Of a DNA stretch of 32,000 bases, positions 6,876-32,000 are shown in pieces; the first letter of the stretch is position 1; every line of letters begins with the position of its first letter. The notes under the pieces are model-generated. The model did no database searches and was not told where the DNA came from. It saw only the letters and a list, made by a program, of their open reading frames with translations. Origin of the DNA: Nanobdellota archaeon (lineage in GTDB: Archaea > Nanobdellota > Nanobdellia > Pacearchaeales > GW2011-AR1); assembly GCA_030641715.1 (NCBI GenBank), contig DAOWGX010000010.1, positions 1,819 to 33,818 on the forward strand. Reading direction: 5' to 3'. The position numbers and the translations under genes are program-made.

Positions 6876-7364
6876 ATGAAACCGAAAATATATGTCGCTA
6901 TAAAGACATTTAACTCTAAAAAAACGGCGTGCCCCAACCAATCTGGAGAATATATCTGTGAGGATAGGGTCTGCCCCAACCTATTAAATATAAATTGTGA
7001 GGGTATTCACAAAGATTGTTTATCCTGTGGAAAAAATATTGAACACCCTCTTTGTCCTGATTGTATCGCAAAAGGTTTCCAACAGTGGATCCAACAATTC
7101 CCCCAAGACAGAGCAAAACTCCAAATAAGATTAGATGAATTCCTAGAAGCACATAGATACCTCGACGGTAAATCTAAAAAATGTATTGCATGCGGAAAAA
7201 ATAACACTCATATCTGCCCATACTGCTTTACAGAATACCTATATAAGATAATTAAAGAGGCTGGTTTAGGGGTTCGAACAATGTCAGAATTTCTATTCAT
7301 CTTCAACTTTGACTTCGATCATCAAGGCTATTCAAAAGAATTAGAAGTCTATGGAGGATACTAA
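6876..7364 (+). CDS. Cysteine-rich zinc-ribbon protein (162 aa)
   Basis: Two CxxC-x7-CxxC motifs (CLSCGKNIEHPLCPDC and CIACGKNNTHICPYC) plus N-terminal CPN..C repeats that coincide with repeat copies A and B. Confidence 0.6.
   Translation: MKPKIYVAIKTFNSKKTACPNQSGEYICEDRVCPNLLNINCEGIHKDCLSCGKNIEHPLCPDCIAKGFQQWIQQFPQDRAKLQIRLDEFLEAHRYLDGKSKKCIACGKNNTHICPYCFTEYLYKIIKEAGLGVRTMSEFLFIFNFDFDHQGYSKELEVYGGY
6931..6963 (+). repeat. Bipartite repeat copy A (GCCCCAACC-N17-TGTGAGG)
   Basis: Inside the zinc-ribbon ORF. The G of GCCCC is at codon position 2. It shares TGCCCCAACCAAT and ATCTGTGAGG with copy C. Confidence 0.75.
6973..7003 (+). repeat. Bipartite repeat copy B (GCCCCAACC-N14-TGTGAGGG)
   Basis: Lies 42 nt after copy A in the same frame. 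It shares GGGTCTGCCCCAACC with copy C, and CTGCCCCAACCTATT and TGTGAGGGTA with copies D and E. Confidence 0.75.
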
Positions 7365-7395: not shown

Positions 7396-8223
7396 ATGAA
7401 GAAGGCACTTGTGTTATACTCCGGAGGATTAGATTCTCGTCTAGTCATACACATGTTACAAAAACAAGGTTACACTATTGAAGCATTATATTTCAAACTA
7501 CCTTTCGAGAGCAAACACAAAAATTCTAAAAAAATGAATAATCTAAAATTAACAGTTATAGACATGACAAAGGAACCATTACTTTCTGAATACCTAAAAA
7601 TCCTAAAAAAACCTAAATTCGGAACAGGTGCAGGGATTAACCCTTGTATTGATTGCAAAATCTTTATGTTCAAAAAAGCAAAAGAGTACGCTGACAAACA
7701 TAACTATGATATAATTGCAACAGGGGAAGTTCCGGGACAACGGCCAATGTCTCAAACAAGTTCTGCACAGAAAAAGATAGATGAGGAGATTAAATTTAAG
7801 ATAATAAGACCATTAGCAGATGTGGGATTCTCAGGACGTTCCAGGAAAAAACAGATGGACTTAGCTGAAAAATATAAAATCAAATATCCAAGTCCTGCTG
7901 GAGGCTGCTTTCTTTGCGAAAAAGAACCCTCTACAAGACTAAAGACACTATTAAAAAAAGATTTAATCAACGAGAAAACACTAACCCTAACAATGATTGG
8001 TAGACATTTTTTTATTGACAATACTTGGTTTATCGTTGCAAGAAACGAAATAGAATCTCAGATAATAACAGAATTCAAAACATCAATCAAAGATGCTAAA
8101 GGTAAACCTTCAGTTTATTATAATAAAACAAAAGGAAAACAGAAAGCTTTAGAACTCCAAGAGGCTTACTCAACAGGATCAACTAAAGAAGAAAGATATA
8201 AATTTGAGGAGGTAAAATTATGA
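7396..8223 (+). CDS. PP-loop ATP pyrophosphatase, ThiI/MnmA-like tRNA thiolation enzyme without a THUMP domain
   Basis: LYSGGLDS PP-loop, and NPCIDCKIFMFKKAKEYADKHNYDIIATGEVPGQRPMSQ, which resembles the ThiI CxxC...TGE..GQ..SQ segment. Confidence 0.7.
   Translation: MKKALVLYSGGLDSRLVIHMLQKQGYTIEALYFKLPFESKHKNSKKMNNLKLTVIDMTKEPLLSEYLKILKKPKFGTGAGINPCIDCKIFMFKKAKEYADKHNYDIIATGEVPGQRPMSQTSSAQKKIDEEIKFKIIRPLADVGFSGRSRKKQMDLAEKYKIKYPSPAGGCFLCEKEPSTRLKTLLKKDLINEKTLTLTMIGRHFFIDNTWFIVARNEIESQIITEFKTSIKDAKGKPSVYYNKTKGKQKALELQEAYSTGSTKEERYKFEEVKL
8208..8213 (+). promoter_or_regulatory. Shine-Dalgarno-like GGAGGT
   Basis: Lies 6 nt upstream of ATG 8220, which overlaps the upstream TGA as ATGA (8220-8223). 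Confidence 0.5.
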
Positions 8224-9321: not shown

Positions 9322-11361
9322 TTAATCCATCCTCTTCAACAAACTCTTCAACTTAGCAGTATTAGCTTCCCTGTCCACCACCTCAGAAACCTCATACGTC
9401 TGGCTCTTCCCAACTTCCTTCGCTTTAACAACCTTCAAATCTCTAAGCATCTTCTTCCGAACATCCTCGGAAACTAACAACTTCCCGACATCAGAATCCG
9501 CAATCCTCTTAGCAAGCGAAATCGTATTCCCAAGACCCGTATACTTCAACTTACCCCCAACCTTAGAAGAAACCAACTCCCCCGTATGCACTCCGAGATT
9601 AAACTCAATCTTATCCTTGAATTTCTTATTATAATCCTTCAAACCTCGCAAAATCTTAATACCTGTCTTCGACGCGAGAACCTCATTCTTATAAGTCTTA
9701 GTAACCAACGGTGAAAACACAATAAAAATATAATCTCCCCTCAAATCAACCAGACCCTTAAACTCTCTAGTCCCCTCGACAATTTTAATCAAAGAATCCT
9801 TCGCATGACCCCCAAGAGTCGCAGAATTCTTAACACTCAAAGCAACAATCGCCGATAGATGCTTCTCACCTTTCAACACCAGCGTCGACTCCGCACCCCC
9901 AATCCCACTTTTTGTCAAATCAACCATAGTCTTATCTTCATGACCATAATTTTTCACATTAAGCCCCGAAGTTTTCGAAACAATTTTGGACTTCGCAGAA
10001 TCAACATGTTTGTAAACAGAACTAACAACATTCTCAATCTTATTTCCCTTAAACTTCTTCGTCTTCCGCGAATTCATAAATAAAATAACTCCCGCAACTC
10101 CGAGAACAATAATCAAAAAAATCCACACAACCGAATAAGCCTTAAAAATTCCAACCTCTTTAAAATCCCTAACCGAAATCGCATTACCCGTCAACAAAAC
10201 CTGCCGATTAATCGAACTCTCCCCATCGCTAACAATAACCTCATACTCTCCCTGCGGAGCCTTAAGACTAAATTTCCGAACCTCCCCCATATCCATAACC
10301 AATTCCAATTCACTACTTTCCTCACCAATCTGGACATCAACACTTCCGTTACATTCCCAGTTCCCAACACACGTAATCTCCAACACACCTTCACTAATAT
10401 TAAACTCCATCTTAGAAGACTTAATCATCTCAAACTCTCTTTGCTCACCAATCTCATCAAACATTGCAATTACCTTCCAGGACCCCGCGGTAGCATTAAC
10501 AGGAAAATCAAAAGTACTAAAATCTCCTGTAGGAATCATGACTTCAATTTCTTCATTCTCCGGAGAGATAATCTTAGCAGAAACGGTTCCAACGATTTCC
10601 TTGCCTGATTGGTCAAAGACCTCAGCACCAATAGTAAACTCCTCTCCCGGAACTGCCTCTTCATCAGAGAGACTCATAATAATCGAAGATGCAACCTGAT
10701 TAATACTAAATGAAATATTAGCGAAACCCTCATTCAAAACACCATTCTGCCCAACATCATAGACACGAATACCAAGAAAATATATCCCTGCCTCTGCAGT
10801 TTCAGACATTGAAAACGTTTCACTAACAGAACCATCCTCAACAGCCTTGCTAAAATACGCTGCATCACTAGCCTCTACAAAACCATTCAACAGACCACCA
10901 TTTGCTTTACTAGCATCAACACTAACCAAAATTCCTTCACCAGGATCATAACTAGTCTTGTCGGTAGAAGCTGAAACAAAAACATCCTTACTTATTGTAA
11001 AAAGTTTTGTCGAAGCCCCCTGGCCACCAAGCGACAAAATAATCTGACACTCACCGAGAATTTCTGTTAAATTAGAAATCTCCAAATCCTCACTAACCAA
11101 TACTTTCGATGTCGCATAAGCTTGATCCTCTTCTGTAGAAAAATCACTCGCAGGCCATCTAACTAAATTTACAGTTTTATTTCCACAAACTAAATTAACG
11201 TTAAAGTTCCCAATTTCAGCACCACGCAATCCATCAGCATTTATATAAATCTTATCACCAAGATTATAAACTTCCTCAGGCTCGGACAAAGAAATATCAG
11301 CGAAGACAAACGAACTCATCAAGATAAACATTAAAGTAAACACATAACCTATTTTTTTCAT
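9322..11361 (-). CDS. Membrane receptor: signal peptide, large extracellular domain, one TM segment, and a cytoplasmic class III nucleotidyl-cyclase homology domain with degenerate catalytic residues
   Basis: MKKIGYVFTLMFILMSSFVFA signal and the TM segment VVWIFLIIVLGVAGVILFM. The C-terminal RGDYIFIVF...LGVHTGELV...YTGLGNTISLAKRI...LLVSEDV matches the cyclase core pattern. The start is moved to ATG 11361, 26.5 nt from the TATA box at 11384-11391. Confidence 0.7.
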   Translation of the reverse strand: MKKIGYVFTLMFILMSSFVFADISLSEPEEVYNLGDKIYINADGLRGAEIGNFNVNLVCGNKTVNLVRWPASDFSTEEDQAYATSKVLVSEDLEISNLTEILGECQIILSLGGQGASTKLFTISKDVFVSASTDKTSYDPGEGILVSVDASKANGGLLNGFVEASDAAYFSKAVEDGSVSETFSMSETAEAGIYFLGIRVYDVGQNGVLNEGFANISFSINQVASSIIMSLSDEEAVPGEEFTIGAEVFDQSGKEIVGTVSAKIISPENEEIEVMIPTGDFSTFDFPVNATAGSWKVIAMFDEIGEQREFEMIKSSKMEFNISEGVLEITCVGNWECNGSVDVQIGEESSELELVMDMGEVRKFSLKAPQGEYEVIVSDGESSINRQVLLTGNAISVRDFKEVGIFKAYSVVWIFLIIVLGVAGVILFMNSRKTKKFKGNKIENVVSSVYKHVDSAKSKIVSKTSGLNVKNYGHEDKTMVDLTKSGIGGAESTLVLKGEKHLSAIVALSVKNSATLGGHAKDSLIKIVEGTREFKGLVDLRGDYIFIVFSPLVTKTYKNEVLASKTGIKILRGLKDYNKKFKDKIEFNLGVHTGELVSSKVGGKLKYTGLGNTISLAKRIADSDVGKLLVSEDVRKKMLRDLKVVKAKEVGKSQTYEVSEVVDREANTAKLKSLLKRMD

Positions 11362-11383
11362 ACACACAATACACATTTTCACT

Positions 11384-12556: not shown

Positions 12557-12867
12557 TCACTTCGTTCTACAGAAATTGCAGTATCTTCTCCAAACCATTT
12601 TGGAGATCTAATTTTAACATCATAGTTCACGCCAATTTCAAGCCCATGAGGATTACCAATAACTCTCAAATCCGGAGCAGTAGTTCTATAAGCAAGAGAT
12701 TTGTCATCAAAGATTAATGTGTTAAAACCTTCAGTCTTCTCAACATGATATCCCTGATAAACTAAGTTTGTTCTTTCACTTAAGTTTCCAGAACCATTCA
12801 AATACGCTCCTCCAACTAACCCTGCAACAATACCAACTCCTGCAATAATTTTTGTACGTGTTTTCAT
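12553..12867 (-). CDS. Small membrane-anchored hypothetical protein (104 aa)
   Basis: N-terminal TM segment IIAGVGIVAGLVGGAYL. The start is moved from the TTG at 12882 to ATG 12867, 25.5 nt from the TATA box at 12889-12896. Confidence 0.5.
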   Translation of the reverse strand: MKTRTKIIAGVGIVAGLVGGAYLNGSGNLSERTNLVYQGYHVEKTEGFNTLIFDDKSLAYRTTAPDLRVIGNPHGLEIGVNYDVKIRSPKWFGEDTAISVERSD

Positions 12868-12888
12868 AAACAATATAACCAAGAATCA

Positions 12889-12896
12889 TTTATAAA
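12889..12896 (-). promoter_or_regulatory. TATA box (TTTATAAA)
   Basis: Box centre is 25.5 nt upstream of ATG 12867. Confidence 0.5.
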
Positions 12897-12969
12897 TCTT
12901 TCTATTTGTAACTATTATTACGTAACAACATCATAATTGTTCATAATCCCTCATAATTCAATAAGTCTA

Positions 12970-13584
12970 TCAGACAAGTTTAGGAGCATAAAATATCAAT
13001 CTTTCAGATTCGTAAACCTTCTCAAGGGAACTCCAATAACTGCCACTCGGCTTTTCGATAGAAATATCATGATAAGCAATAATCTCAGACTCTCTAGAAA
13101 TTCCAACCTTAAATCCATCAAGAACCTTTTTAGCATCTTTTCCACATTTCTCAAAAACCTTTTGCTCATACTCATTCATAGATAGCTTCTCCTCAGCCTG
13201 TCCCCAAAGTTTACTTCCATCAAAAGTGCAAGAAAATGCGTTCCTTTCGTGTATTACAGAATAAATATCATTAGGATAATCCTCACTAGGTACCCTATTC
13301 AAAATACATCTAGTAATAAGACTCCGATTCTTCGAACTCTGATTAGCTGCCTCAGCATAAAGAATTTTTTGTATCTCTAAATATTCTTTCGCAGAAAAAG
13401 TCTGACTATTTTCATCAACAGAACTAGGTCCATTTGAAACTTTACTCTCCAAACTATCCTTATGTAATCTTTCTACAACATTACCAACATTTTCAGGCTT
13501 AAATGGTTTCTCAAGGTAGGACCCTCCAACTGAAATTGCACTTGCAAGAGTGGCAACCACAATAAAATTACTAATCTTTCCCAT
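12970..13584 (-). CDS. Secreted or anchored SleB-like cell-wall hydrolase domain protein
   Basis: N-terminal hydrophobic anchor. ILYAEAANQS...RCILNRVPSEDYPNDIYSVIHERNAFSC matches the SleB/Hydrolase_2 pattern as I recall it (EA....NRV...FP..I..V....QFS). The start is moved to ATG 13584. Confidence 0.65.
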   Translation of the reverse strand: MGKISNFIVVATLASAISVGGSYLEKPFKPENVGNVVERLHKDSLESKVSNGPSSVDENSQTFSAKEYLEIQKILYAEAANQSSKNRSLITRCILNRVPSEDYPNDIYSVIHERNAFSCTFDGSKLWGQAEEKLSMNEYEQKVFEKCGKDAKKVLDGFKVGISRESEIIAYHDISIEKPSGSYWSSLEKVYESERLIFYAPKLV

Positions 13585-13605
13585 AAACAACCCAAAAAAT
13601 AATCC

Positions 13606-13613
13606 TTTTTAAA
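13606..13613 (-). promoter_or_regulatory. TATA box (TTTAAAAA on minus strand)
   Basis: Box centre is 25.5 nt upstream of ATG 13584. Confidence 0.45.
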
Positions 13614-13628
13614 CTTTCCTATCCGTAA

Positions 13629-14354
13629 CTATTCTTCCGTAACAACACCAGGACTTCCAAGAACCTCAATCCCCTTGTCACTAATACCCATCCCAACAGC
13701 CTTTCTCTCATGCGCCGTTCTCCTCATCTTCGCAATCCGAACCGCCCGGTCACTAACACCTGTAATTCCAGATTCATAAAACACACTAACCGAATCCGAA
13801 AGAAACCTCAAAATATCTGTCTTCGTCCAATCACCATTACTAACCCCACTTATCCAACCCTCCTCAAGACTCTCATCACTAAAAATCGTAGTCACCTTCA
13901 ATCGTTTCATCAGCGACGACAAATCAAAAATAGTTTGCCTAATCTTCCCTTTCTCACTAAGATTCAACGCCAAAACTGAAATAGGATCAAAACAAATTCT
14001 CTTAATATTATTCCGCGCAATCACACTTGTTAATTCAGATTTTAAATCTTCAATAGAAGTTTGTGGAGCAAACCTCATAAACTTGATCTTCCCTTCACCA
14101 CTCAGCTTCGAGAAATCCCAACCATAAGCCATAGCATCATTCAACGTATCTACAATATCAGGTTCAAACGAACAATAAAGCCCATTCTCTCCAAACTGCA
14201 TAGCCCCATTCCAAAGAAATTGCAAAAGAAACGTACTCTTTCCAGAACCAGGTCCACCAACAATTAAATTGTCCGAATTTCTTACAAAACCTCCTTGGCA
14301 AAGCTTATCAAAACCTGCAACACCTGTAGGACATCTATCCACCATCCCTGCCAT
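13629..14354 (-). CDS. Single-domain KaiC/RadA-like (RecA-superfamily) ATPase
   Basis: GGPGSGKSTF Walker A and an N-terminal TGVAGFDKL..GG motif. The start is ambiguous. GGAGGTG lies 7 nt upstream of ATG 14354, but an ATATAAAA box at 14369-14376 fits leaderless initiation at ATG 14345. Confidence 0.8.
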   Translation of the reverse strand: MAGMVDRCPTGVAGFDKLCQGGFVRNSDNLIVGGPGSGKSTFLLQFLWNGAMQFGENGLYCSFEPDIVDTLNDAMAYGWDFSKLSGEGKIKFMRFAPQTSIEDLKSELTSVIARNNIKRICFDPISVLALNLSEKGKIRQTIFDLSSLMKRLKVTTIFSDESLEEGWISGVSNGDWTKTDILRFLSDSVSVFYESGITGVSDRAVRIAKMRRTAHERKAVGMGISDKGIEVLGSPGVVTEE

Positions 14355-16161: not shown

Positions 16162-17019
16162 CTAAAACTTCCAGACAAAATTAACTCCTGCTTCAAGAGT
16201 ATTATTCCCAGGTTCATAAACAGGATTTACCCATTCATCAGCTATTCTTATTCTTGCATCTGCTGGCTCTGAACATCCAATTATCCAATAATCAACATAA
16301 GGTTCAACAGAAAAATCTCCTAACTTAGTCTTTTTCCCAATTTCCACTGAAGCTTTTATTCCAGCCCCTTTTTTCTGAGTATTTTTTACTTCAGGATATG
16401 TAGAATGATTGTCATCAAATGAACTTGTCTGAGTACCCTTTAACAACCATTTACCCTTCAGATCAACCCCATAAAACCACCCAGAGTCCATCTCTATCTT
16501 TGTCTCAACCCCTCCAAGCATATAAAAAAGTTCATTTTCCCTATCATAAGCATGATATTTTTGATCTCCAACACAAGAACTCATCCCAGAACCTTTATCT
16601 TCAACTCTCCTATATCCAGATCCCCCATATAGTGTAACACTAGAATTATCTCCAAGGGGCATTTTATATCCAGCCTTTACTTCTACCTCTTTTATCTGAT
16701 TTCCCCTATCATTCATTGAACCAGTTTTATTAGAAGTATAATCTAAATCTTCTGTAGCATAACTCCCATTAATTCCTAAAGTAAAACCTTTTTTCTCAGG
16801 TTCATAATCATAAGAAGCCCCAACTTTTCGCATTAAACCTTCAAGTTGCATAACAGAAGGTTCCATATAAGTATAACTGGAGATTCCCATCTCAACCCCA
16901 ATTTTATGAGGAGAACGGATCTCTTCAGCACTTACAACCTTAGGTGCAACAAAAGGCAAAGAGGACACTGCAGCTACAAGTCCTGTCAACGCAATTGTCT
17001 TTATTGATCGGTTTTTCAT
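16162..17019 (-). CDS. Secreted protein with the hallmarks of a bacterial outer-membrane beta-barrel
   Basis: Signal peptide MKNRSIKTIALTGLVAAVSSLPFVAPKVVSA, Gly/Tyr-rich strands with alternating polarity, and a C-terminal ...LEAGVNFVWKF ending in Phe. The start is moved from the GTG at 17025 to ATG 17019. Confidence 0.55.
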   Translation of the reverse strand: MKNRSIKTIALTGLVAAVSSLPFVAPKVVSAEEIRSPHKIGVEMGISSYTYMEPSVMQLEGLMRKVGASYDYEPEKKGFTLGINGSYATEDLDYTSNKTGSMNDRGNQIKEVEVKAGYKMPLGDNSSVTLYGGSGYRRVEDKGSGMSSCVGDQKYHAYDRENELFYMLGGVETKIEMDSGWFYGVDLKGKWLLKGTQTSSFDDNHSTYPEVKNTQKKGAGIKASVEIGKKTKLGDFSVEPYVDYWIIGCSEPADARIRIADEWVNPVYEPGNNTLEAGVNFVWKF

Positions 17020-17041
17020 AACCACGAAACAGAAACATCGC

Positions 17042-17049
17042 TTTATAAA
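17042..17049 (-). promoter_or_regulatory. TATA box (TTTATAAA)
   Basis: Box centre is 26.5 nt upstream of ATG 17019. Confidence 0.5.
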
Positions 17050-17144
17050 TCCTTCTATTTGTTACTTTTGGACAGTAGGAACATTAGAGAGATTTTATAA
17101 CATCTCTCACATAAATTCTTAAACACAAATCTCCAAATATTTTT

Positions 17145-18960: not shown

Positions 18961-20370
18961 ATGAAATCTCCGCGTAAACCAACAAAAACAATCTCAGGCG
19001 TAGCCCCCCTAGCTGTGATGCTCCCTCCGAGAAAATGCGACCACGGCACCTGCCTCTATTGCCCATCCCTAAACGCCCCGCAATCCTACACTCCAGAATC
19101 CCCCGCAGTCCTCCGAGCAAAACAATGCAACTACGACCCTATTAAACAAATCAAAGCCCGATTAAAAGCCTTCGAAGTAATGGGGCACCCAACAGACAAA
19201 ATCGAGCTAATCATCATGGGAGGGACATTTCTGTCTTACCCTAAAGAATTCCAATTCGATTTCATAAAAAAATGTTACGATGCACTAAACCACAAAAAAG
19301 GGTCTGCCCCAACCAATAATAAAAATAAATCTGTGAGGGTAGCAAAATCGTTATCCGAAGCCAAAAAAATAAACGAAAAAACAAAACACCGATGCACAGC
19401 ACTTTGCATAGAAACACGTCCAGACGTTTGCACCGATGAAAATATTAACGATATGCTTGAATGGGGAGCAACACGAGTCGAACTAGGGGTCCAGGCTATC
19501 GACGATGAAATCTATAAAAAAGTAAACAGATGCCACACCGTTCAAGATGTAATCGACGCAACAGCAAGACTAAAAAAAGCAGGATTCAAAATCGGTTACC
19601 ACTTAATGCCCGGTATACCAGGTTCTAACCCAAAAAAAGATATCAAGATGTTTAAAAAAATATTCTCTTCAAAAAATTTCAAACCAGACCAAATAAAAAT
19701 CTACCCTTGCCAAGTTCTGAAAGGAGCAGGAATCGAAAACTTATACTATGGCGGAGAATACATCCCCTACACAAAACAACAAGCTACAAAAATCATAATC
19801 CAGATGTTAAAACTAACTCCGCGATACTGCCGAATCATGCGAATCATGCGGGAAATCCCTCCGAACTACCTCGTTGCCGGAATCAAAAACATCGATCTCA
19901 GAAAAGACATCGAAGAAAAAATCAGGACTAAAAAGATAAAAGTTGACGAAATAAGATTCAGAGAAATTGGTTTTGCACTAAGAGATAAAAGAAAAATTAA
20001 TTCAGAATTAAAACTCAAAATAACAAAATATAAAGCATCCAAAGGAACCGAATTCTTCATTGAAGCAATCAACAAAGACAACATCCTCTTCGGACTTCTT
20101 CGTCTTCGCCTCGACAAAAAAATAGCAACAGTTAGAGAACTTCACATTTACGGCCCAACCTTAAAACTAAACGAAAAAGCAAACAACGCATGGCAACATA
20201 AAGGCTTAGGAAAATTACTAATACAAGAAGCAGAAAAAATTGTAAAGAAGAAAAGTTACAAAAAAATCCGAGTAATCTCGGGGATTGGCGTAAGAGAATA
20301 CTATAAAAAACTAGGCTATAAATTAGATGAAAAGAAAATCTACGTCGAGAAATACTTATCTTTAATATAA
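18961..20370 (+). CDS. elp3: Elp3-type radical SAM / GNAT tRNA-modification enzyme
   Basis: SGVAPLAVML..CDHGTCLYCP radical-SAM cluster motif, IIMGGTF, ETRPD, and a C-terminal GNAT domain (VRELHIYG...QHKGLGKLL). An ATTTAAAC box lies 24.5 nt upstream. The gene contains repeat copy C, and its 3' end is duplicated at 21297-21338. Confidence 0.9.
   Translation: MKSPRKPTKTISGVAPLAVMLPPRKCDHGTCLYCPSLNAPQSYTPESPAVLRAKQCNYDPIKQIKARLKAFEVMGHPTDKIELIIMGGTFLSYPKEFQFDFIKKCYDALNHKKGSAPTNNKNKSVRVAKSLSEAKKINEKTKHRCTALCIETRPDVCTDENINDMLEWGATRVELGVQAIDDEIYKKVNRCHTVQDVIDATARLKKAGFKIGYHLMPGIPGSNPKKDIKMFKKIFSSKNFKPDQIKIYPCQVLKGAGIENLYYGGEYIPYTKQQATKIIIQMLKLTPRYCRIMRIMREIPPNYLVAGIKNIDLRKDIEEKIRTKKIKVDEIRFREIGFALRDKRKINSELKLKITKYKASKGTEFFIEAINKDNILFGLLRLRLDKKIATVRELHIYGPTLKLNEKANNAWQHKGLGKLLIQEAEKIVKKKSYKKIRVISGIGVREYYKKLGYKLDEKKIYVEKYLSLI
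19306..19339 (+). repeat. Bipartite repeat copy C (GCCCCAACC-N17-TGTGAGGG) inside elp3
   Basis: The G of GCCCC is at codon position 1, a different frame from copies A and B. It encodes part of GSAPTNNKNKSVRV. Confidence 0.75.
20320..20359 (+). repeat. Left 40-nt direct repeat (current elp3 3' end)
   Basis: 33/40 identical to 21297-21336, with a perfect 18-nt core AAAATCTACGTCGAGAAA (20335-20352 versus 21312-21329). The offset is exactly 977 nt. Confidence 0.8.
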
Positions 20371-21248
20371 CTAACAAACTGCTTCTCATTTTTCTCAATC
20401 TGATAATAATCTAAGGCATCATAATAATTCTCCAAATCCCCTACAGGAATGTCAATCAAAGGATAACCCCGTTTCCACAAAACCCAATTCATCAAAAGTC
20501 TAGCTAACCTCGAATTTCCGTCCGCAAAAATTTGCATAGAAATTAATCTTAAATGAATTAACGAGGCAAGTTCCAATGGATGCAATTTTCGATTATTGCC
20601 TTTATACCAACAAAAAAATTCCTTAATTTCTTTTTCTAATTCATTCCACTTCGGAGGAACATAAGTCGTCCCCGCAATCTTAACATTTCGTTTCAACTCA
20701 CTCCGAAGTTTCCCGGCAATCTCATTATCTACCCCGTGCATCAAAATCCTATGCAGTTTTTTTATAAAATTCAAATCAAACACTCCTCGATACTTAGTAA
20801 TCATCATAAAACCTTCCTCATGATTCTCAATCTCCTTAGCTGTTCTCAAATTCTTGAATTCTTTCGGAATAATTCCCTCATGTAAAATAAGAAAGGTCTG
20901 TCTTAAAGTTACATCAACCCCTGAAAGCTTAGAACTATCATAGGTATACCTTATCATAAACTCCTCCAAGTTTTTTTCTCTCTCGCCCTCGCTTAATTTT
21001 CCTATCTCCCTAATATATTTTAGTTTCTTATCTTCTATTTTCTCCAACTCTTCACAAGAAAAATATTTAGTTCCCTTTTGTTTAATCTCTTCTAAAAATT
21101 CTTTCCTTATCTTTTCAAGTTCTCTCTTCGGAGGAATTGTTTTACCTATATATTTCTTTTTTTGTTTAATTCTACCACCATCCCGGATAGAATGGATTAA
21201 TACCCAATACTCTTTTCCCGAAACTTTAATTTTTCTAAGCGTCGCCAT
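20340..21248 (-). CDS. Fic-domain protein with degenerate active-site motif
   Basis: QIFADGNSRLAR aligns to HPFx(D/E)GNGRxxR with His replaced by Gln. SSKLSG lies where the inhibitory (S/T)xxxE(G/N) motif is expected, with Glu replaced by Ser. The 3' end overlaps elp3 by 31 nt. Confidence 0.75.
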   Translation of the reverse strand: MATLRKIKVSGKEYWVLIHSIRDGGRIKQKKKYIGKTIPPKRELEKIRKEFLEEIKQKGTKYFSCEELEKIEDKKLKYIREIGKLSEGEREKNLEEFMIRYTYDSSKLSGVDVTLRQTFLILHEGIIPKEFKNLRTAKEIENHEEGFMMITKYRGVFDLNFIKKLHRILMHGVDNEIAGKLRSELKRNVKIAGTTYVPPKWNELEKEIKEFFCWYKGNNRKLHPLELASLIHLRLISMQIFADGNSRLARLLMNWVLWKRGYPLIDIPVGDLENYYDALDYYQIEKNEKQFVSYIKDKYFST

Positions 21249-21270
21249 GTAAAGATTATGTACTACACTT

Positions 21271-21278
21271 ATTTAAAT
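21271..21278 (-). promoter_or_regulatory. TATA box (ATTTAAAT) for Fic gene 1
   Basis: Box centre is 26.5 nt upstream of ATG 21248. It lies inside the cassette. Confidence 0.5.
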
Positions 21279-21296
21279 GTTTTGTTTATGCACCAC

Positions 21297-21336
21297 AAAT
21301 TAGACAAACGAAAAATCTACGTCGAGAAAAAATTAT
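21297..21336 (+). repeat. Right 40-nt direct repeat (relic elp3 3' end)
   Basis: Reads KLDKRKIYVEKKL followed by TAA (21336-21338), compared with KLDEKKIYVEKYLSLI in the live gene. Confidence 0.8.
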
Positions 21337-21433: not shown

Positions 21434-21868
21434 ATGGAAATTCGAAGATATACAAAAGAGGATAAGGAAGAAATTACCAAGATGGTTTCTGAAATTCTTA
21501 GAGAAATGTTTAATGGAAACCCTGAAGAATTTAAAATATTAAAAGAATTCAACGTGACCAAAGACTACATCTATTATCTCGTCGTCGTTATCGGCAAGAA
21601 AATCGTCGGCGTCGGTGCCTTGAAAAAATTAAAGGATAGAAAAGTAAGAATAAAAAGATTATATGTAATGGAAGACTATCGTCGAAGAGGAATTGCGCAA
21701 AAAATCCTAAATCAACTAATTCGATTCGCAAGAGAACAGAACTTTAAGCAGATTCTTTTCAACACGTACCCTACAATGGAACATGCAAGGCGGTTTCATA
21801 AAAGAAATGGATTCGTAGAAATAATAAGCAACGACCCCTATCAGATACACCTGGCTAAAAAACTATAA
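21434..21868 (+). CDS. GNAT-family N-acetyltransferase
   Basis: Acetyl-CoA motif A, RRRGIAQKILNQL, in a 144-aa single-domain protein. A TTTATAAA box (21397-21404) lies about 33 nt upstream. Confidence 0.8.
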   Translation: MEIRRYTKEDKEEITKMVSEILREMFNGNPEEFKILKEFNVTKDYIYYLVVVIGKKIVGVGALKKLKDRKVRIKRLYVMEDYRRRGIAQKILNQLIRFAREQNFKQILFNTYPTMEHARRFHKRNGFVEIISNDPYQIHLAKKL

Positions 21869-21890
21869 CTTCTTGCGATAAATAAAAACA

Positions 21891-21898
21891 TTTAAATA
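21891..21898 (+). promoter_or_regulatory. TATA box (TTTAAATA) for the RHH gene, followed by palindrome CATTAC-AATA-GTAATG
   Basis: Box centre is 26.5 nt upstream of ATG 21921. The palindrome at 21904-21919 lies between the box and the start, a plausible autoregulatory operator. Confidence 0.45.
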
Positions 21899-21920
21899 AT
21901 AAGCATTACAATAGTAATGT

Positions 21921-29458: not shown

Positions 29459-29622
29459 TATTATTATTACCGAAGCTATATCTCGAAGATTTATAGGATT
29501 ACTTTGGAGTGACTAATCTAAAGCACAATATACAACATAACAAAAGAATAAGACCTACAACATCTTGATAAAAACCAAACTCGCAAAAATTCCCAAAAAC
29601 TCAATCCGCTTATCTCCGGTTC

Positions 29623-29853
29623 TCAGCTTCCAGCCCTCTTCAACAAACCATACCGAACCATTCCCTCATAAGTTTTCTCCTTAACCTTCTCGACATTCGG
29701 ATTCGCATAATCTTCATTATTATCCTTAAACCAACCCCTATCATAAAGATTTTCCATAAACAATTCATCAAACCTTTCCTTCTCCTCTCCATCTAACGCA
29801 TCAATCTCTCTCATCGTATCCTCATCCACTACATCCTTAAGAGATTTTTCCAT
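29623..29853 (-). CDS. Small acidic hypothetical protein (76 aa)
   Basis: The start is moved from the GTG at 29859 to ATG 29853, 26.5 nt from the TATA-like box at 29876-29883. Confidence 0.45.
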   Translation of the reverse strand: MEKSLKDVVDEDTMREIDALDGEEKERFDELFMENLYDRGWFKDNNEDYANPNVEKVKEKTYEGMVRYGLLKRAGS

Positions 29854-29902: not shown

Positions 29903-29961
29903 ACCCAACCATAGCATGCCCCAACCTATTCTTTAATATATGTGTGAGGGCACAACAAAAC
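29903..29961 (+). repeat. 59-nt direct repeat D (contains the bipartite core GCCCCAACC-N16-TGTGAGGG)
   Basis: 57/59 identical to 31564-31622. The core is at 29918-29950. Confidence 0.85.
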
Positions 29962-30096
29962 AATTAATCCAAACTTTACAATTTTAAAAATCCTAAGCAA
30001 CAACTAACTTACTCCGTTTCGGACAAACAAAAAGCATCATTCACGAAAACAAAAAACCAACCGCCCAAAACAAAAGTAATTACAATAGTAATATTT

Positions 30097-30126
30097 AAAA
30101 ACTGCTTCTACTTATAATAAGTAGAA
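30097..30126 (-). terminator. Hairpin plus T5 downstream of the tRNA-like gene
   Basis: Perfect palindrome TTCTACTTAT-A-ATAAGTAGAA (30106-30126), followed on the minus strand by GCAG and TTTTT (30097-30101). Confidence 0.4.
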
Positions 30127-30132
30127 TATTAA

Positions 30133-30203
30133 TGGACGTGCCGGGAATATAACCCGGATTGAAACCGTTTCAGAGTATTGTACTAACATTGTACGACACG
30201 CCC
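30133..30203 (-). tRNA. Non-canonical tRNA-like gene, anticodon GAA (Phe), with a G3.U70 pair
   Basis: 71-nt cloverleaf. Acceptor stem is GGGCGTG/CACGTCC, followed by U8. D arm is GTAC-AATGTTA-GTAC. Anticodon arm is ATACT-CTGAAAC-GGTTT (U33, GAA, A37; one U.U and one G.U). Variable loop is CAAT. T arm is CCGGG-TTATATT-CCCGG (G53-C61, U54, U55, A58). Discriminator is A73 and there is no encoded CCA. It lacks G18G19 and C56. A TATA box lies 28.5 nt upstream and a hairpin with T5 lies downstream. Confidence 0.5.
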
Positions 30204-30227
30204 ATTAATATGCCTAATTTTTCAATC

Positions 30228-30235
30228 TTTATAAA
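30228..30235 (-). promoter_or_regulatory. TATA box (TTTATAAA) for the tRNA-like gene
   Basis: Box centre is about 28.5 nt upstream of predicted tRNA nucleotide 1 (30203). Confidence 0.45.
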
Positions 30236-30383
30236 CATTAAGAATTAAATCGATATTCATCCCTTACACTTTTTCGATATTCAGCGTTGATAAAAAATCG
30301 TTCATGAAACCATCAAAACTCCTCGCTCGTCCCTCGCTCCCAACTCCCCCTCCAATATCTCCCTCAAAACCCCAAGCATTACG

Positions 30384-30483
30384 TTCCTGCCCAAATACTC
30401 AAAAAAATAACTAAATTCCTGCCGAAATGATTCACTAAATTATCCTCACCGAGAATAAAAAGAAATAATCTTCCTGTCCAAAT
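30384..30483 (+). repeat. Three 13-nt direct repeats TTCCTGYCSAAAT upstream of Fic gene 2
   Basis: Copies lie at 30384-30396, 30416-30428 and 30471-30483. The last abuts the Fic2 TATA box. A separate 10-nt repeat TCGATATTCA lies at 30250-30259 and 30274-30283. Confidence 0.6.
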
Positions 30484-30490
30484 GGTAAAG

Positions 30491-30498
30491 TATTTAAA
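30491..30498 (+). promoter_or_regulatory. TATA box (TATTTAAA) for Fic gene 2
   Basis: Box centre is about 25 nt upstream of ATG 30520. Confidence 0.5.
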
Positions 30499-30519
30499 CT
30501 ATCACTCCTTAAAATAATC

Positions 30520-31464
30520 ATGGCATCAATTGAAGAAAGCAAGAAAGGGACGAACACCTACCTTTCCTTCGCAAAGAAACTAACTTTTATGAACAAACAG
30601 TTTCTCTATAAAAAACATATCGGAAGAAAAATCAAGAATATATCCAAAGAAGAATATATCTTAGACAATTTAAAAGAAATAGTCGAATCAGAATTTGAAT
30701 TTAGAAAAAAGTATTTAGACCAAATAAAAAACAAACTATCCCATAATAAAAACCTACCTGAAAGAATAGAAAAAAAAGCCATAGAGATAATTAATCTGCA
30801 GGAAGGTAATAAATATCCGGAAGCGATAAATTCTGATTTCTCAATTAAATTTATTTATAATTCTAATAATATTGAAGGTTCAAAATTGCCCGAAGAAGAA
30901 GTAAAAAAAATTGTTAAACTTGGAAAAACTAATTATAAAAATGAAAACGAAGCTCGAGAAGCTTTCAATTCGATTGACGCTTTTAATTATCTGGATGACT
31001 TTAATTTTAATATCCCTTCTGTTAAAAGACTCTACAACATCTTAACGAAAAATCTTATAATGGAAAACGGAAACCCCTACCCTAAAGGTTTCAAAAAAAT
31101 AAACGTGATTGTAAACAATTCTCAAACAACACCTCCTGAAAAAGTTGAAAAAGAACTCTATGAATTACTGGACTGGTACAAAAAGAACAGGGGGAAAATT
31201 CATCCGATAATTTTAGCGTTGGACTTTCATTTAAGATATGAACAAATTCATCCATTTAGAGATTGTAATGGCAGAACGGGCAGGATGATTATGAATAAAA
31301 TTTTGATGCAGAATCGATATCCCCCAATAATTGTCTACAAAGAAAATAAATCTGCCTATTTTAATTCAATAGCAAAAGCAAACGAAGGTAACAAGAAAAA
31401 ATATTACCAGTTTATGTTAGAACAGGCCGATAAAAGTTATGATTATATTCGGGAACTTTTTTGA
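30520..31464 (+). CDS. Fic-domain protein, class II-like with an intact catalytic motif
   Basis: HPFRDCNGRTGR matches HPFx(D/E)GNGRxxR except that Gly is replaced by Cys. The upstream SNNIEG fits the inhibitory (S/T)xxxE(G/N) helix motif. Confidence 0.85.
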   Translation: MASIEESKKGTNTYLSFAKKLTFMNKQFLYKKHIGRKIKNISKEEYILDNLKEIVESEFEFRKKYLDQIKNKLSHNKNLPERIEKKAIEIINLQEGNKYPEAINSDFSIKFIYNSNNIEGSKLPEEEVKKIVKLGKTNYKNENEAREAFNSIDAFNYLDDFNFNIPSVKRLYNILTKNLIMENGNPYPKGFKKINVIVNNSQTTPPEKVEKELYELLDWYKKNRGKIHPIILALDFHLRYEQIHPFRDCNGRTGRMIMNKILMQNRYPPIIVYKENKSAYFNSIAKANEGNKKKYYQFMLEQADKSYDYIRELF

Positions 31465-31563
31465 ATTAAAAGACAAACTCCTTGCCCCATTGCCTTCAGA
31501 GTTCCCAATTCTCAGACCGTTCACCCCGTTCGCTCTCATTCCTTTCCCCTTCGCCTAACTCTC

Positions 31564-31622
31564 ACCCAACCATAGCCTGCCCCAACCTATTCTTTAATAT
31601 ATGTGTGAGGGTACAACAAAAC
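31564..31622 (+). repeat. 59-nt direct repeat E
   Basis: 57/59 identical to 29903-29961. The core is at 31579-31611. Confidence 0.85.
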
Positions 31623-31704
31623 TTATATCTCCCAACACCTCATAAAATACATAACCAAAACTTAAAAATAAAAATAAAAAAGAGGAACAAGGTCCTCATT
31701 AAAT

Positions 31705-32000
31705 TTATGTATAAAACCCAAGACCAGCTGGAGACATAGACTTATACGCGACCTCATGACCCCCTTCGCACGGATCATTCGTAAACTCTTGTATTGTCGC
31801 AAAAGCTCCCCAAATCACAGGACCAATTTCAACACCATCTACGGTATACCAAACACTTTCACTCTTGTAAGCATCTTCTGGCACCGCAACAATTTTCACA
31901 AAAGATTCATATTTACAAATTTCTCCGTCTTGTTCATATATTCCTCTCTCATGATTAGTTAACCAAGCCCCATAACAACCAGAATTCACAGGATTATTTG
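31705..32000 (-). CDS. Hypothetical protein, 5' end beyond the window
   Basis: The reading frame stays open upstream of the GTG reported at 31989, through to the window edge. No motif recognised. Confidence 0.4.
   Translation of the reverse strand, partial: NNPVNSGCYGAWLTNHERGIYEQDGEICKYESFVKIVAVPEDAYKSESVWYTVDGVEIGPVIWGAFATIQEFTNDPCEGGHEVAYKSMSPAGLGFYT

Follow-up and report, generated by a model that had tools for sequence, protein, structure and literature searches.

Two 59-nt direct repeats in the genome of a Nanobdellota archaeon enclose a segment carrying a tRNA-Phe gene and a gene of the Fic/DOC family (Fic2), and this segment is missing from a syntenic relative in which a single copy of the repeat occupies the site. 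The 59-mer is local intergenic DNA that holds one copy of a 41–42-nt element dispersed among DPANN archaea, and is no Fic-specific recombination repeat. On balance, we judge that the pair probably represents resident intergenic sequence that was duplicated by an insertion into a variable hot spot, beside an element that resembles REP sequences and Rickettsia palindromic elements (RPEs). Table 1 lists the features of the window, the whole 32,000-nt stretch of DNA that was analysed.

Table 1. Features of the window, by position from its first nucleotide
Feature	Position	Strand	Remarks
Two tandem element units, N-terminus of zinc-ribbon ORF	6925..7005	+	in frame, encode CPNQSGEYICED and CPNLLNINCEG
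Hydrolase direct repeat, copy 1 (66 nt)	12865..12930	+	ATG and promoter of 109-aa gene, relic KaiC 3′ end
SleB-type cell-wall hydrolase	12970..13584	-	PF07486; missing from relative L015
Hydrolase direct repeat, copy 2 (66 nt)	13582..13647	+	77% identical to copy 1
42-nt element in elp3	19300..19341	+	in frame, encodes GSAPTNNKNKSVRV; missing from elp3 of L078 and L015
Fic1 direct repeat, copy A	20320..20359	+	present elp3 3′ end
Fic1 (302 aa)	20340..21248	-	degenerate motif QIFADGNSR
Fic1 direct repeat, copy B	21297..21336	+	relic elp3 3′ end with its own stop codon
76-aa gene left of 59-mer copy 1	29623..29853	-	without family match; missing from L091
59-nt direct repeat, copy 1	29903..29961	+	9-nt flank, 41-nt dispersed element, 9-nt flank
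Element unit in copy 1	29912..29952	+	TAGCA-TGCCCCAACC-TATTCTTTAATATATG-TGTGAGGGCA
Inserted segment (1602 nt)	29962..31563		missing from syntenic relative
tRNA-Phe(GAA)	30132..30204	-	ARAGORN; Rfam RF00005
C-rich, G-poor tract	30300..30383	+	outside conserved Fic2 module
Fic2 control region	30384..30519	+	kept alongside Fic2 in three further contexts
Fic2 (314 aa)	30520..31464	+	PF02661
C-rich, G-poor tract, 3′ end of insert	31465..31563	+	base composition
59-nt direct repeat, copy 2	31564..31622	+	right flank colinear with single site in L091
Element unit in copy 2	31573..31613	+	−5/−1 pair broken (TAGCC)
45-nt direct repeat, copy 1 (adjacent insertion)	31618..31662	+	ATG of 156-aa gene here changed to ATA
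230-aa secreted-protein gene, 3′ part	31705..32000	-	cargo of adjacent insertion; complete in L087 (8224-8916)

The 59-nt repeats and the segment between them

The two copies lie in the same orientation with their starts 1661 nt apart and agree at 57 of 59 positions, the two mismatches falling at repeat positions 14 (A/C) and 49 (C/T), as originally noted. Such a duplication is far above chance expectation (self-BLAST E = 1.6e-22). Identity between the copies extends 9 nt past the element on either side; in relatives, other element pairs of the same subfamily match over the element itself and no further. Since the duplicated target consists of the element plus 9 nt per side, we read the pair as a long target duplication rather than as a cassette-borne or Fic-specific sequence.

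The syntenic relative (L091/L078), in which ThrRS, the 169-aa gene, the methyltransferase and elp3 follow one another as in the window, has one 59-mer-like copy (87% identical) with the locus-specific flanks ACTCAACCATAG and CAATAATC. It is placed directly 5′ of the orthologue of the 156-aa gene, at a site without tRNA-Phe, Fic2 and the 230-aa gene. The relative with the empty site is a different species of about 75% nucleotide identity, and since the empty site is seen only in another species, a loss in that lineage is possible. Within the population, neither an empty allele nor a circular junction was seen; the Logan unitigs end within the repeat, and the one metagenome scan gave the related species only. 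The right flank of copy 2 prolongs the colinearity with L091. On the left, copy 1 aligns better with the L091 site than copy 2 does; its alignment is weak because the 76-aa gene is missing from L091. Neither window copy has both flanks orthologous to the L091 site, and each has one substitution that neither the other copy nor the orthologue there shares.

Between the repeats, a tRNA-like gene on the minus strand and a second Fic gene on the plus strand had been predicted, and both assignments agree with the profile searches. The tRNA-Phe(GAA) scores 51.9 bits against RF00005 (gathering score 29), placing it in the tRNA family. It is atypical, with 48% GC, a D-loop without GG and A56 in the T-loop; a TATA-like box of its own lies at about 30225-30240 and a hairpin with a T-run at 30104-30131. 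Its departure from the canonical DPANN tRNA-Phe fits a foreign origin. Fic2 belongs to the Fic/DOC family by its score of 60.8 bits against PF02661 (cut-off 24, E = 2.3e-16). Its predicted catalytic motif, HPFRDCNGRTGR at residue 244, has C in place of a G of HxFx(D/E)GNGRxxR, and SNNIEG at residue 115 is a putative inhibitory-helix motif of the form (S/T)xxxE(G/N). The short repeats and the C-rich, G-poor tracts claimed for the control region and for the DNA following Fic2 are real: TTCCTGYCSAAA occurs three times (at 30384, 30416 and 30471) in the 315-nt spacer between tRNA and Fic2, and C and G make up 44% and 7% of 30300-30380 and 44% and 10% of 31480-31565, compared to 23% and 13% in the whole window. 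A TATA-like box lies about 25 nt upstream of the Fic2 ATG.

Orthologues of Fic2 (77–84% nucleotide identity) are found in three other contexts with constant module ends (30384-31461). There we detected no homology outside this interval and no direct repeats around Fic2. Since none of the orthologue loci has an adjoining tRNA, we rejected the tRNA-Phe as a conserved partner of Fic2. A viral carrier was also rejected, as the element, Fic2 and the tRNA are all missing from IMG/VR contigs; matches in PHROGs were to generic Fic and endolysin families only. The absence of a nearby recombinase gene, also part of the original prediction, was borne out by Pfam scans of ORFs of at least 60 aa in the window and its extension in the second assembly, L087 (35 kb).

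A dispersed 41–42-nt element

The core of the element, N-RGY-N′-TGCCCCAACC-(AT-rich 12–19)-TGTGAGGGTA, was found in at least 18 Woese-, Pace- and Nanoarchaeota MAGs, either singly or in tandem arrays with a period of 39–43 nt, and is nearly invariant across DPANN orders. We counted 125 copies in 0.54 Mb of archaeal loci, about 70% of them intergenic and 30% genic. The element is thus a short imperfect palindrome of many copies that is mostly extragenic, as expected of a REP-type repeat. Genic copies are in frame and occur in genes of all kinds, including those for Elp3 and aminoacyl-tRNA synthetases. In the window, the core recurs once in elp3 (19305) and twice in the zinc-ribbon ORF (6930 and 6972), as had been noted before, and the string TGCCCCAACC-N-TGTGAGG is present five times, always on the plus strand, where shuffled sequences lead one to expect none. 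Element orientation tracks strand composition, independent of gene direction. The 59-mer might have proved to be a common dispersed repeat with no empty site; the core is indeed common in DPANN archaea, but an empty site exists in a related species. Among the surveyed copies there was no sign of preferential bracketing of accessory genes.

At elp3 the insert is exactly 42 nt and no target-site duplication is recognisable around it; the 5′ end of the gene has the reverse pattern, with an element in relatives but not in the window. All genic copies lie within uninterrupted ORFs, so that no frame needs the element to be deleted, as for RPEs. The core was rejected as a protein motif (zinc knuckle CPN...CEG) because it is also found in other frames (SAPTN..SVRV in elp3), antisense and between genes, and because tandem units recur every 39, 40 or 43 nt, periods that are not all multiples of three. 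An mRNA intron was rejected as well, since genic copies are frame-open and only one copy, in L004, is bordered on both sides by open frames (107 and 68 codons); the fold also lacks the bulge-helix-bulge 3-4-3 geometry of archaeal introns. A promoter or terminator does not fit the near-even arrangements relative to genes (19/19/14/12 for intergenic copies, 16 sense versus 14 antisense for genic ones), and a CRISPR-like mini-array is at odds with spacers of 12–19 nt that follow a constraint (WA...TAWAT) and frequently recur unchanged in one array. Shuffled sequences reach equally good folding energies (z-scores −1.0 to +2.3), which gives no support to a stable hairpin. On the other side, three of four changes at arm pair 7 are compensatory, and positions −5 and −1 form an unusual covarying pair with 97% complementarity. 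We found no Rfam family for the 59-mers or the tandem arrays, and nothing relevant in the literature on the motif, on DPANN repeats or on archaeal RPE-like elements; the 42-nt repeat family is apparently undescribed.

Other bracketed insertions and known systems

The genome contains four bracketed insertions with four unrelated repeats, each a duplicate of its local target. The three further duplications measure 66, 40 and 45 nt (77–91% identity), and their targets, at the hydrolase, Fic1 and the 230-aa gene, respectively, are without the dispersed element. The Fic1 repeats are 83% identical over 40 nt and flank a cassette of about 940 nt (20360-21296) that is common to L034 and L016; single-copy sites are found in L078, L091 and L015. 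Cassette boundaries are constant in three genomes and the flanking repeats differ: in L016 they are copies of an array repeat, not the elp3 3′ end as in the window. The repeats thus derive from the target. At the hydrolase, the 3′ end of KaiC was duplicated along with the promoter and start codon (ATG) of the 109-aa gene, and L015 has the single-copy site. The partner of the 45-nt repeat lies just past the window (L087 9002-9046, 91% identical) and supplies the 156-aa gene with its promoter and ATG. Both Fic genes are thus bracketed by direct repeats, as proposed. Of the proposal that Fic cassettes are captured by repeat-mediated recombination, the insertion-like behaviour of the segment survives, given the single copy in L091/L078; the bracketing is not Fic-specific and no repeat is common to the cases.

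Relatives carry cassette arrays of toxin-antitoxin, Fic and NYN genes with repeated gene ends between them. In L016, nine direct copies of one repeat separate seven cassettes, all on one strand, and L004 has a duplicated unit made up of a repeat and a gene. These arrays look more like directional, site-specific integration, which counts against a target-duplication view.

Among att-flanked islets and satellites are tyrosine-recombinase elements at the 3′ ends of tRNAs or genes, integrated archaeal mobile genetic elements and tycheposon-type cargo arrays. Like these, the insertions described here have direct repeats of tens of nucleotides at both ends and single-copy empty sites in relatives; one is at a gene 3′ end (Fic1 at elp3), the cargo is of the Fic, toxin-antitoxin and defence kind, and L016 and L004 hold arrays with repeated copies of one gene end. 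Unlike them, all four inserts are without an integrase gene in or beside them, are only 0.65–1.6 kb long and have one target-derived repeat each; the Fic1 cassette, with repeats that vary by genome, departs from the rule of one att sequence per element.

Copying of the target on both sides of a cargo of unrelated sequence is also a property of the duplications made by transposons, casposons and CRISPR-repeat insertion. Target duplications by transposases and casposases are 2–15 nt long, whereas those seen here are 40, 45, 59 and 66 nt and hence variable, and the inserts have neither terminal inverted repeats nor a transposase, in contrast to classical transposons and MITEs with their short fixed duplications.

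Integrons have been reported in Archaea, and the abundance of toxin-antitoxin and Fic genes in cassettes of a single gene, with a same-strand array and a recurring repeat in L016, is reminiscent of them. An attC site has the inverse core RYYYAAC, the core GTTRRRY and an imperfect palindrome of 57–141 nt. The element, likewise an imperfect inverted repeat, has a 5′ arm (CCCCAAC) similar to RYYYAAC, but its 3′ arm GTGAGGG misfits GTTRRRY and the unit is 41–42 nt long, and we rejected attC on motif and length. Moreover, no intI was seen, the cassettes of the window lie on both strands between identical target duplicates, and the repeat of the L016 array is not attC-like.

The element itself is closer to REP/BIME sequences with their RAYT and to IS200/IS605 palindromes, being short, multicopy, mostly intergenic and single or clustered. 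The link between its orientation and strand asymmetry resembles that of replication-coupled single-stranded DNA transposition, and the covariation beside the hairpin foot recalls pairing between guide and cleavage site. It differs in that no RAYT or TnpA was identified in the 8-kb loci, in lacking a conserved GTAG head, in a predicted hairpin no more stable than shuffled sequence, and in a near-invariance that crosses orders rather than being species-specific. RPEs are about 100–150 bp long and restricted to Rickettsia. The element shares with them the appearance of a selfish short repeat, in frame in essential genes and evidently translated; it is unlike them in its length, its archaeal hosts, its tandem arrays and its strand polarity.

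Origin of the duplications

On the reading that we favour, a foreign or relocated segment of 1.6 kb would have entered a hot spot between a large surface-protein gene and the conserved 156-aa gene of this Pacearchaeota-like DPANN archaeon. It would have brought the atypical tRNA-Phe and Fic2, the latter as a self-contained module with its promoter. We infer that the event was a gain rather than a loss. Events of the same type would have occurred at least three more times in the genome, at unrelated targets with 40–66 nt duplicated, each duplication leaving the flanking gene end or promoter intact. The insert may have been joined at two strand breaks 40–66 nt apart and the gaps then filled, or replication may have jumped to the foreign template and rejoined the resident one upstream of where it had left. 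In a genome nearly devoid of spacer DNA, the survivors would be only those insertions that duplicated the disrupted gene end or promoter. We know of no enzyme that makes staggered cuts of 40–66 nt, a span beyond the classical transposase range, and none was found here. Also counting against this reading, the element sits exactly in the middle of the duplication (9 + 41 + 9) and the adjacent 45-nt duplication begins 5 nt past it. Both point, if faintly, to an element that steers the event and does not just lie nearby, and it may have helped to attract the insertion.

An alternative that we consider unlikely is integration of the Campbell type, in which a circle with tRNA-Phe, Fic2 and its own element copy recombined with the resident element, either homologously or by means of a site-specific recombinase that acts in trans and recognises the element, leaving one copy on either side; this corresponds to the proposal first made for the Fic cassettes. 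Here the centring of the duplication would follow from the element being the site of recombination, and such sites are commonly built, like the element, as imperfect inverted repeats of conserved sequence. The L034 homologue of Fic1 sits between two element copies, and the L016 and L004 arrays suggest that cassettes travel with one repeat copy and integrate directionally. However, identity between the 59-mers spans the 9-nt locus-specific flanks, which are also at the single site of L091, and a foreign circle carrying those flanks would need to have originated at the same locus of a close relative. Nor does this account cover the three insertions with element-free targets, the element pairs elsewhere that have no extended identity, or the lack of an integrase in the 35 kb examined. 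If it were true, the dispersed element would be a distributed docking site for cassettes.

It is improbable that the 59-mers are two independent insertions of one young element subfamily with unrelated genes caught between them. The element does appear mobile or indel-polymorphic, being present or absent at elp3 in both directions, and the genome CSMAG_2291 has near-identical subfamily copies that share flanks. Yet the mobile unit at elp3 is 42 nt and not 59, the additional 9 + 9 nt match the orthologous locus, neither copy is bordered by two L091-orthologous flanks, and three insertions are bracketed alike without any element. We give similarly little credence to a bolder proposal, that the element is the cis-site of an undescribed, replication-coupled and possibly HUH-like system of single-strand DNA processing, which would spread the element, in frame into essential genes as well, cut about 9 nt beyond either end of a resident copy and nucleate the capture of foreign cassettes with long duplications.

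The filled state could be ancestral, the relative having lost the block by recombination between repeats that stem from an earlier tandem duplication. We regard this as quite improbable: an identity of 57/59 would allow slippage or recombination to delete the block and the empty site belongs to another species, but four bracketed genes would need to have been lost independently in two relatives, the origin of the repeats is left unexplained, and closer relatives have Fic2 in other surroundings. It is extremely improbable that the assembly is a chimera joined at a dispersed repeat, for although short-read unitigs break within the 59-mer, the repeat is shorter than the reads, L087 has the same arrangement with 2 mismatches in 8519 nt, and the outer junctions are independently confirmed in two Logan unitigs (L089 and L100).

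DPANN archaea depend on hosts, have minimal genomes and acquire many genes of bacterial type. In this window, four single-gene acquisitions bear one signature, a target duplication of 40–66 nt that spares the end or promoter of the neighbouring gene. Long duplications and the dispersed element lengthen or change ORFs and so lead gene callers astray, and they also disrupt assemblies. Were the element the cis-site of a DNA-processing system, elements and gene ends together would form a distributed, integron-like platform for gene capture in genomes seemingly without ordinary mobile-element machinery. Followed genome-wide, either feature could expose the recombination or transposition machinery of DPANN archaea.

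Probable duplication of the tRNA-Phe/Fic2 insertion site

The repeat-bracketed arrangement described in the original prediction is real: two 59-nt copies (the 59-mer) lie in the same orientation and form a highly significant pair (E = 1.6e-22 when the window with its extension was compared with itself by BLAST). L087, a second assembly of the locus that adds 2.9 kb, differs from the window by 2 mismatches in 8519 nt, and the outer junctions were confirmed in two Logan unitigs. The tRNA-like gene between the copies is a tRNA-Phe(GAA) (ARAGORN; Rfam tRNA model 51.9 bits, gathering score 29), and its neighbour encodes a 314-aa Fic protein, Fic2 (PF02661, E 2.3e-16). The control region between them indeed holds short direct repeats (TTCCTGYCSAAA, three times), and both C-rich, G-poor tracts are present (C 44%, G 7–10%, against 23% and 13% in the window). 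The window is DPANN archaeal DNA (archaeal ThrRS editing domain, KaiC-type ATPase, Elp3; GC about 36%), the nearest relatives being MAGs of Pacearchaeota and Woesearchaeota. Genes of bacterial type also occur in this archaeal genome, encoding an OMP beta-barrel or autotransporter-like protein, a GGDEF diguanylate cyclase and a weak guanylate-cyclase domain.

A single scan of metagenomic data, for the element subfamily present in the 59-mer, yielded a 14.4-kb contig, L091, of the same species as locus L078. L091 shares the ThrRS-to-elp3 gene order with the window and lacks the other Fic gene (Fic1), tRNA-Phe, Fic2 and the 230-aa secreted-protein gene at the right edge. It provides a single-copy site in a related genome: one 59-mer-like copy with 87% identity, flanks beyond the element included, followed after about 30 nt by the orthologue of the 156-aa gene, a gene situated immediately past the right end of the window. 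The window is colinear with L091 rightwards from copy 2, and the left flank of L091 is better matched by that of copy 1. In the 59-mer a single 41-nt element unit has 9 nt on either side, and each copy carries one private substitution. Directly to the right of copy 2, overlapping it by 5 nt, a second, 45-nt duplication encloses the 230-aa gene, whose family has 1737 homologues, bacterial ones included. The 156-aa gene has its promoter and start codon (ATG) in the distal 45-nt copy; the proximal copy reads ATA where the ATG has decayed. Removing both inserts from the window gives the L091 arrangement. By these alignments the 59-mer is resident target DNA, apparently duplicated.

Bracketed insertions and their origin

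In the self-comparison of the window and its extension, direct repeats of 24 nt or longer lying no more than 6 kb apart numbered only seven, and four of these bracket single-gene inserts (see table). Both Fic genes are among them, as had been claimed. The four repeats are mutually unrelated and each copies its local target. That around Fic1 derives from the terminal 40 nt of elp3, and KLDKRKIYVEKKL-stop can still be read in the distal copy; that around the SleB-type hydrolase gene is the KaiC 3′ end with the promoter and ATG of a 109-aa gene. A single-copy site for the hydrolase insertion is seen in the related locus L015, and elp3 lacks Fic1 in L015, L078 and L091. The Fic1 cassette (about 940 nt) has identical ends in differing surroundings in two other relatives, L034 and L016, and in L016 its flanking repeat is not that of the window; since one cassette has different flanking repeats, the repeats come from the target and not from the cassette. 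The start codon of the hydrolase gene is precisely the ATG in the duplicated 5′ region of the 109-aa gene. The hydrolase gene may have inherited the 109-aa gene's signal peptide too, and the locus would be a gene capture reusing promoter and start codon.

The original suggestion of repeat-mediated capture of Fic cassettes holds in that the Fic genes are bracketed, but the hydrolase and 230-aa genes are bracketed too, by unrelated, target-derived repeats. In its place we read the segment as one among several gene insertions, each with a long duplication of its target. The insertions, their target-derived duplications of 40–66 nt and single-copy sites in relatives are direct observations, and no recombinase is encoded near the bracketed insertions, in line with the earlier reading.

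Target duplication at insertion is, on balance, the probable origin of the 59-mer pair. Foreign DNA would have been joined at strand breaks 40–66 nt apart and the gaps filled in, or a template switch during replication may have been followed by a return upstream. Spacer DNA is almost absent from this genome, and the only inserts retained would be those duplicating the interrupted gene end or promoter.

The main alternative is repeat- or att-mediated integration, by a single crossover of a circle that carries a homologous or att-like copy. It is supported by the cassette arrays of two relatives. In L016 (Woesearchaeota MAG CAZAIT010000008), nine direct copies of one 45–100-nt repeat (...GGTGGAAGTGTTATCATTAGGTTGGGATAA) have seven same-strand cassettes between them, which include MNT-HepT (twice), Bro-N, VapB-like, NYN and a Fic1 homologue; this layout recalls an integron, with neither an attC-like site nor an integrase in view in L016 1-8000. 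In the related locus L004 the ftsY 3′ end occurs four times, and a unit of this end plus an opposite-strand 231-aa gene is itself duplicated (about 91% identity) on both sides of the SRP54 gene. The exact centring of the 59-nt duplication on an element supports it too. However, the 59-mer also contains locus-specific flanks and three of the bracketed insertions involve no element, and we consider circle integration unlikely. The remaining explanations are less probable still.

Coordinates of repeats, genes and element copies (window positions unless a locus is named)
Feature	Position	Strand	Length	Identity
Bracket, tRNA-Phe + Fic2 (59-mer)	29903-29961 / 31564-31622		59 nt	57/59
Bracket, 230-aa gene	31618-31662 / L087 9002-9046		45 nt	91%
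Bracket, Fic1			40 nt	83%
Bracket, SleB-type hydrolase gene			66 nt	77%
Hydrolase insertion locus	12865-13647
tRNA-Phe(GAA)	30132-30204	-
Fic2 gene	30520-31464	+
Fic2 module	30384-31461
C-rich, G-poor low-complexity tracts	30300-30383, 31465-31563, 29596-29622
In-frame element, elp3	19300-19341	+
In-frame element, zinc-ribbon ORF	6925-7005	+
In-frame element, conserved genes	L066 1521-1555, L050 6663-6694, L008 404-438, L056 7828-7862
Repeat with antisense element	L055 7370-7478 / 7755-7863		109 nt	86%
Cassette array	L016 1-8000
ftsY 3′ end copies	L004 2431-6907
Canonical tRNA-Phe	L024 3057-3130
Bacterial-type genes	16162-17025, 9322-11382, L087 9511-10527
TTATTTAAATGTTTTG inverted repeat	21269-21302 / 21866-21899
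TTTATAAATCTTTCTATTTGTAACT recurrence	12889-12913 / 17042-17066

The inserted genes

Compared with a canonical DPANN tRNA-Phe (in locus L024), the inserted one is AT-rich, with a D-loop (AAUGUUA) without GG and A56 in its T-loop (UUAUAUU), and may form a U19-A56 pair in place of G19-C56. It comes with a TATA-like box of its own and with a hairpin plus T-run. Origin from a mobile element would fit; a viral match was sought and none found. About 110 nt downstream of the canonical L024 gene, 18 nt of its 3′ end are duplicated.

Fic2 retains an intact motif HPFRDCNGRTGR and has an inhibitory-type motif, SNNIEG, near its N-terminus; its predicted activity is that of an auto-inhibited AMP-transferase-type Fic enzyme, and its family is very large in DPANN archaea (587 homologues, E < 1e-10). 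Fic1 has lost the catalytic histidine. The Fic2 module, from a promoter with three operator-like repeats to the stop codon, recurs in three other contexts at 77–84% nucleotide identity, with no tRNA and no flanking repeats there, and behaves as self-contained. The C-rich tracts lie outside it. Similar tracts, often with TTCTCAG-type heptamer repeats, flank elements in loci of the DPANN MAG CSMAG_2291 and Fic1 in L016; in several genomes they adjoin elements as well as the ends of cassettes. Two AT-rich promoter-like sequences also recur in the window, TTATTTAAATGTTTTG as an inverted repeat around a GNAT gene and TTTATAAATCTTTCTATTTGTAACT at 4 kb distance, and may be shared promoter modules.

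The dispersed element

The bipartite core noticed originally, TGCCCCAACC-N-TGTGAGG, has five window copies, all on the plus strand, where chance predicts none. A census with a slightly tightened core pattern, scanning one genome per GTDB species, gave 86 loci, 70 from at least 18 DPANN MAGs (Woese-, Pace-, Nanoarchaeota or unclassified archaea); CSMAG_2291 alone contributes more than 30 copies. The 16 bacterial matches, each a lone hit with a GC-rich spacer, appear fortuitous. Copies conform to the consensus N-RGY-N'-TGCCCCAACC-WA...TAWATN-TGTGAGGGTA, are most often 41–42 nt long, and stand singly or in tandem arrays of period 39–43 nt. The element has no Rfam family, no copy on IMG/VR contigs and no description in the literature searched.

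Of 92 archaeal copies, 65 fall between genes and the other 27 within long ORFs, in either orientation; none of the ORFs with these 27 copies is interrupted. Hosts include Elp3, a MetRS-like gene and an Ile/Val-tRNA-synthetase-like gene; in-frame copies encode SAPTN..SVRV or CPNQ..ICEG, and L008 and L056 have the element at the orthologous position of one unidentified conserved ORF. The window elp3 carries a clean 42-nt in-frame insertion missing from two relatives, whose elp3 has a copy right behind the start codon that the window lacks; by these differences the element is insertion-polymorphic and its unit boundaries are defined. In-frame insertion of a 42-nt element in conserved genes recalls the Rickettsia palindromic elements. 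In locus L055, two genes, one on each side of the ribosomal protein L39e gene, have a translated copy, and the direct repeat there holds it antisense (..PSQI..LGQTLPPAQ..).

The arms are near-invariant (125 copies), and rare changes of their A-T pair are mostly compensatory (G-C twice, C-G once, G-T once); the predicted hairpin does not exceed shuffled sequence in stability. Positions -5 and -1 before TGCCCC, at the 5′ edge of the unit, form an isolated covarying pair around the R-G-Y triplet, complementary in 97% of 112 unique copies with all four Watson-Crick combinations seen (mutual information 1.39 bits; at most 0.5 bits for other position pairs). A unit begins at -5, so the hairpin closed by this pair, GGGTAN-RGY-N'TGCCC, is present only across a unit-unit junction. 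The covariation points to a possible tandem or circular intermediate, or to a junction-spanning recognition site.

Element-bearing DPANN loci have very strong GC skew (|skew| 0.3–0.5), and TGCCCC..GAGGG lies on the C-rich strand of the locus in 104 of 122 copies, or in 85 of 90 at |GC skew| of at least 0.2. Orientation bears no relation to neighbouring gene direction, and skew on the element strand is -0.02 in co-oriented and -0.38 in opposite genes, so the strand asymmetry is independent of gene direction. The bias is as expected for a replication-polar sequence.

At the tRNA-Phe/Fic2 insertion site sits a REP/RPE-like element found DPANN-wide. Neither the insertion signature nor the element family seems to have been described before; both are variations on known kinds and not categorically new, unless the element proves to direct the insertions.
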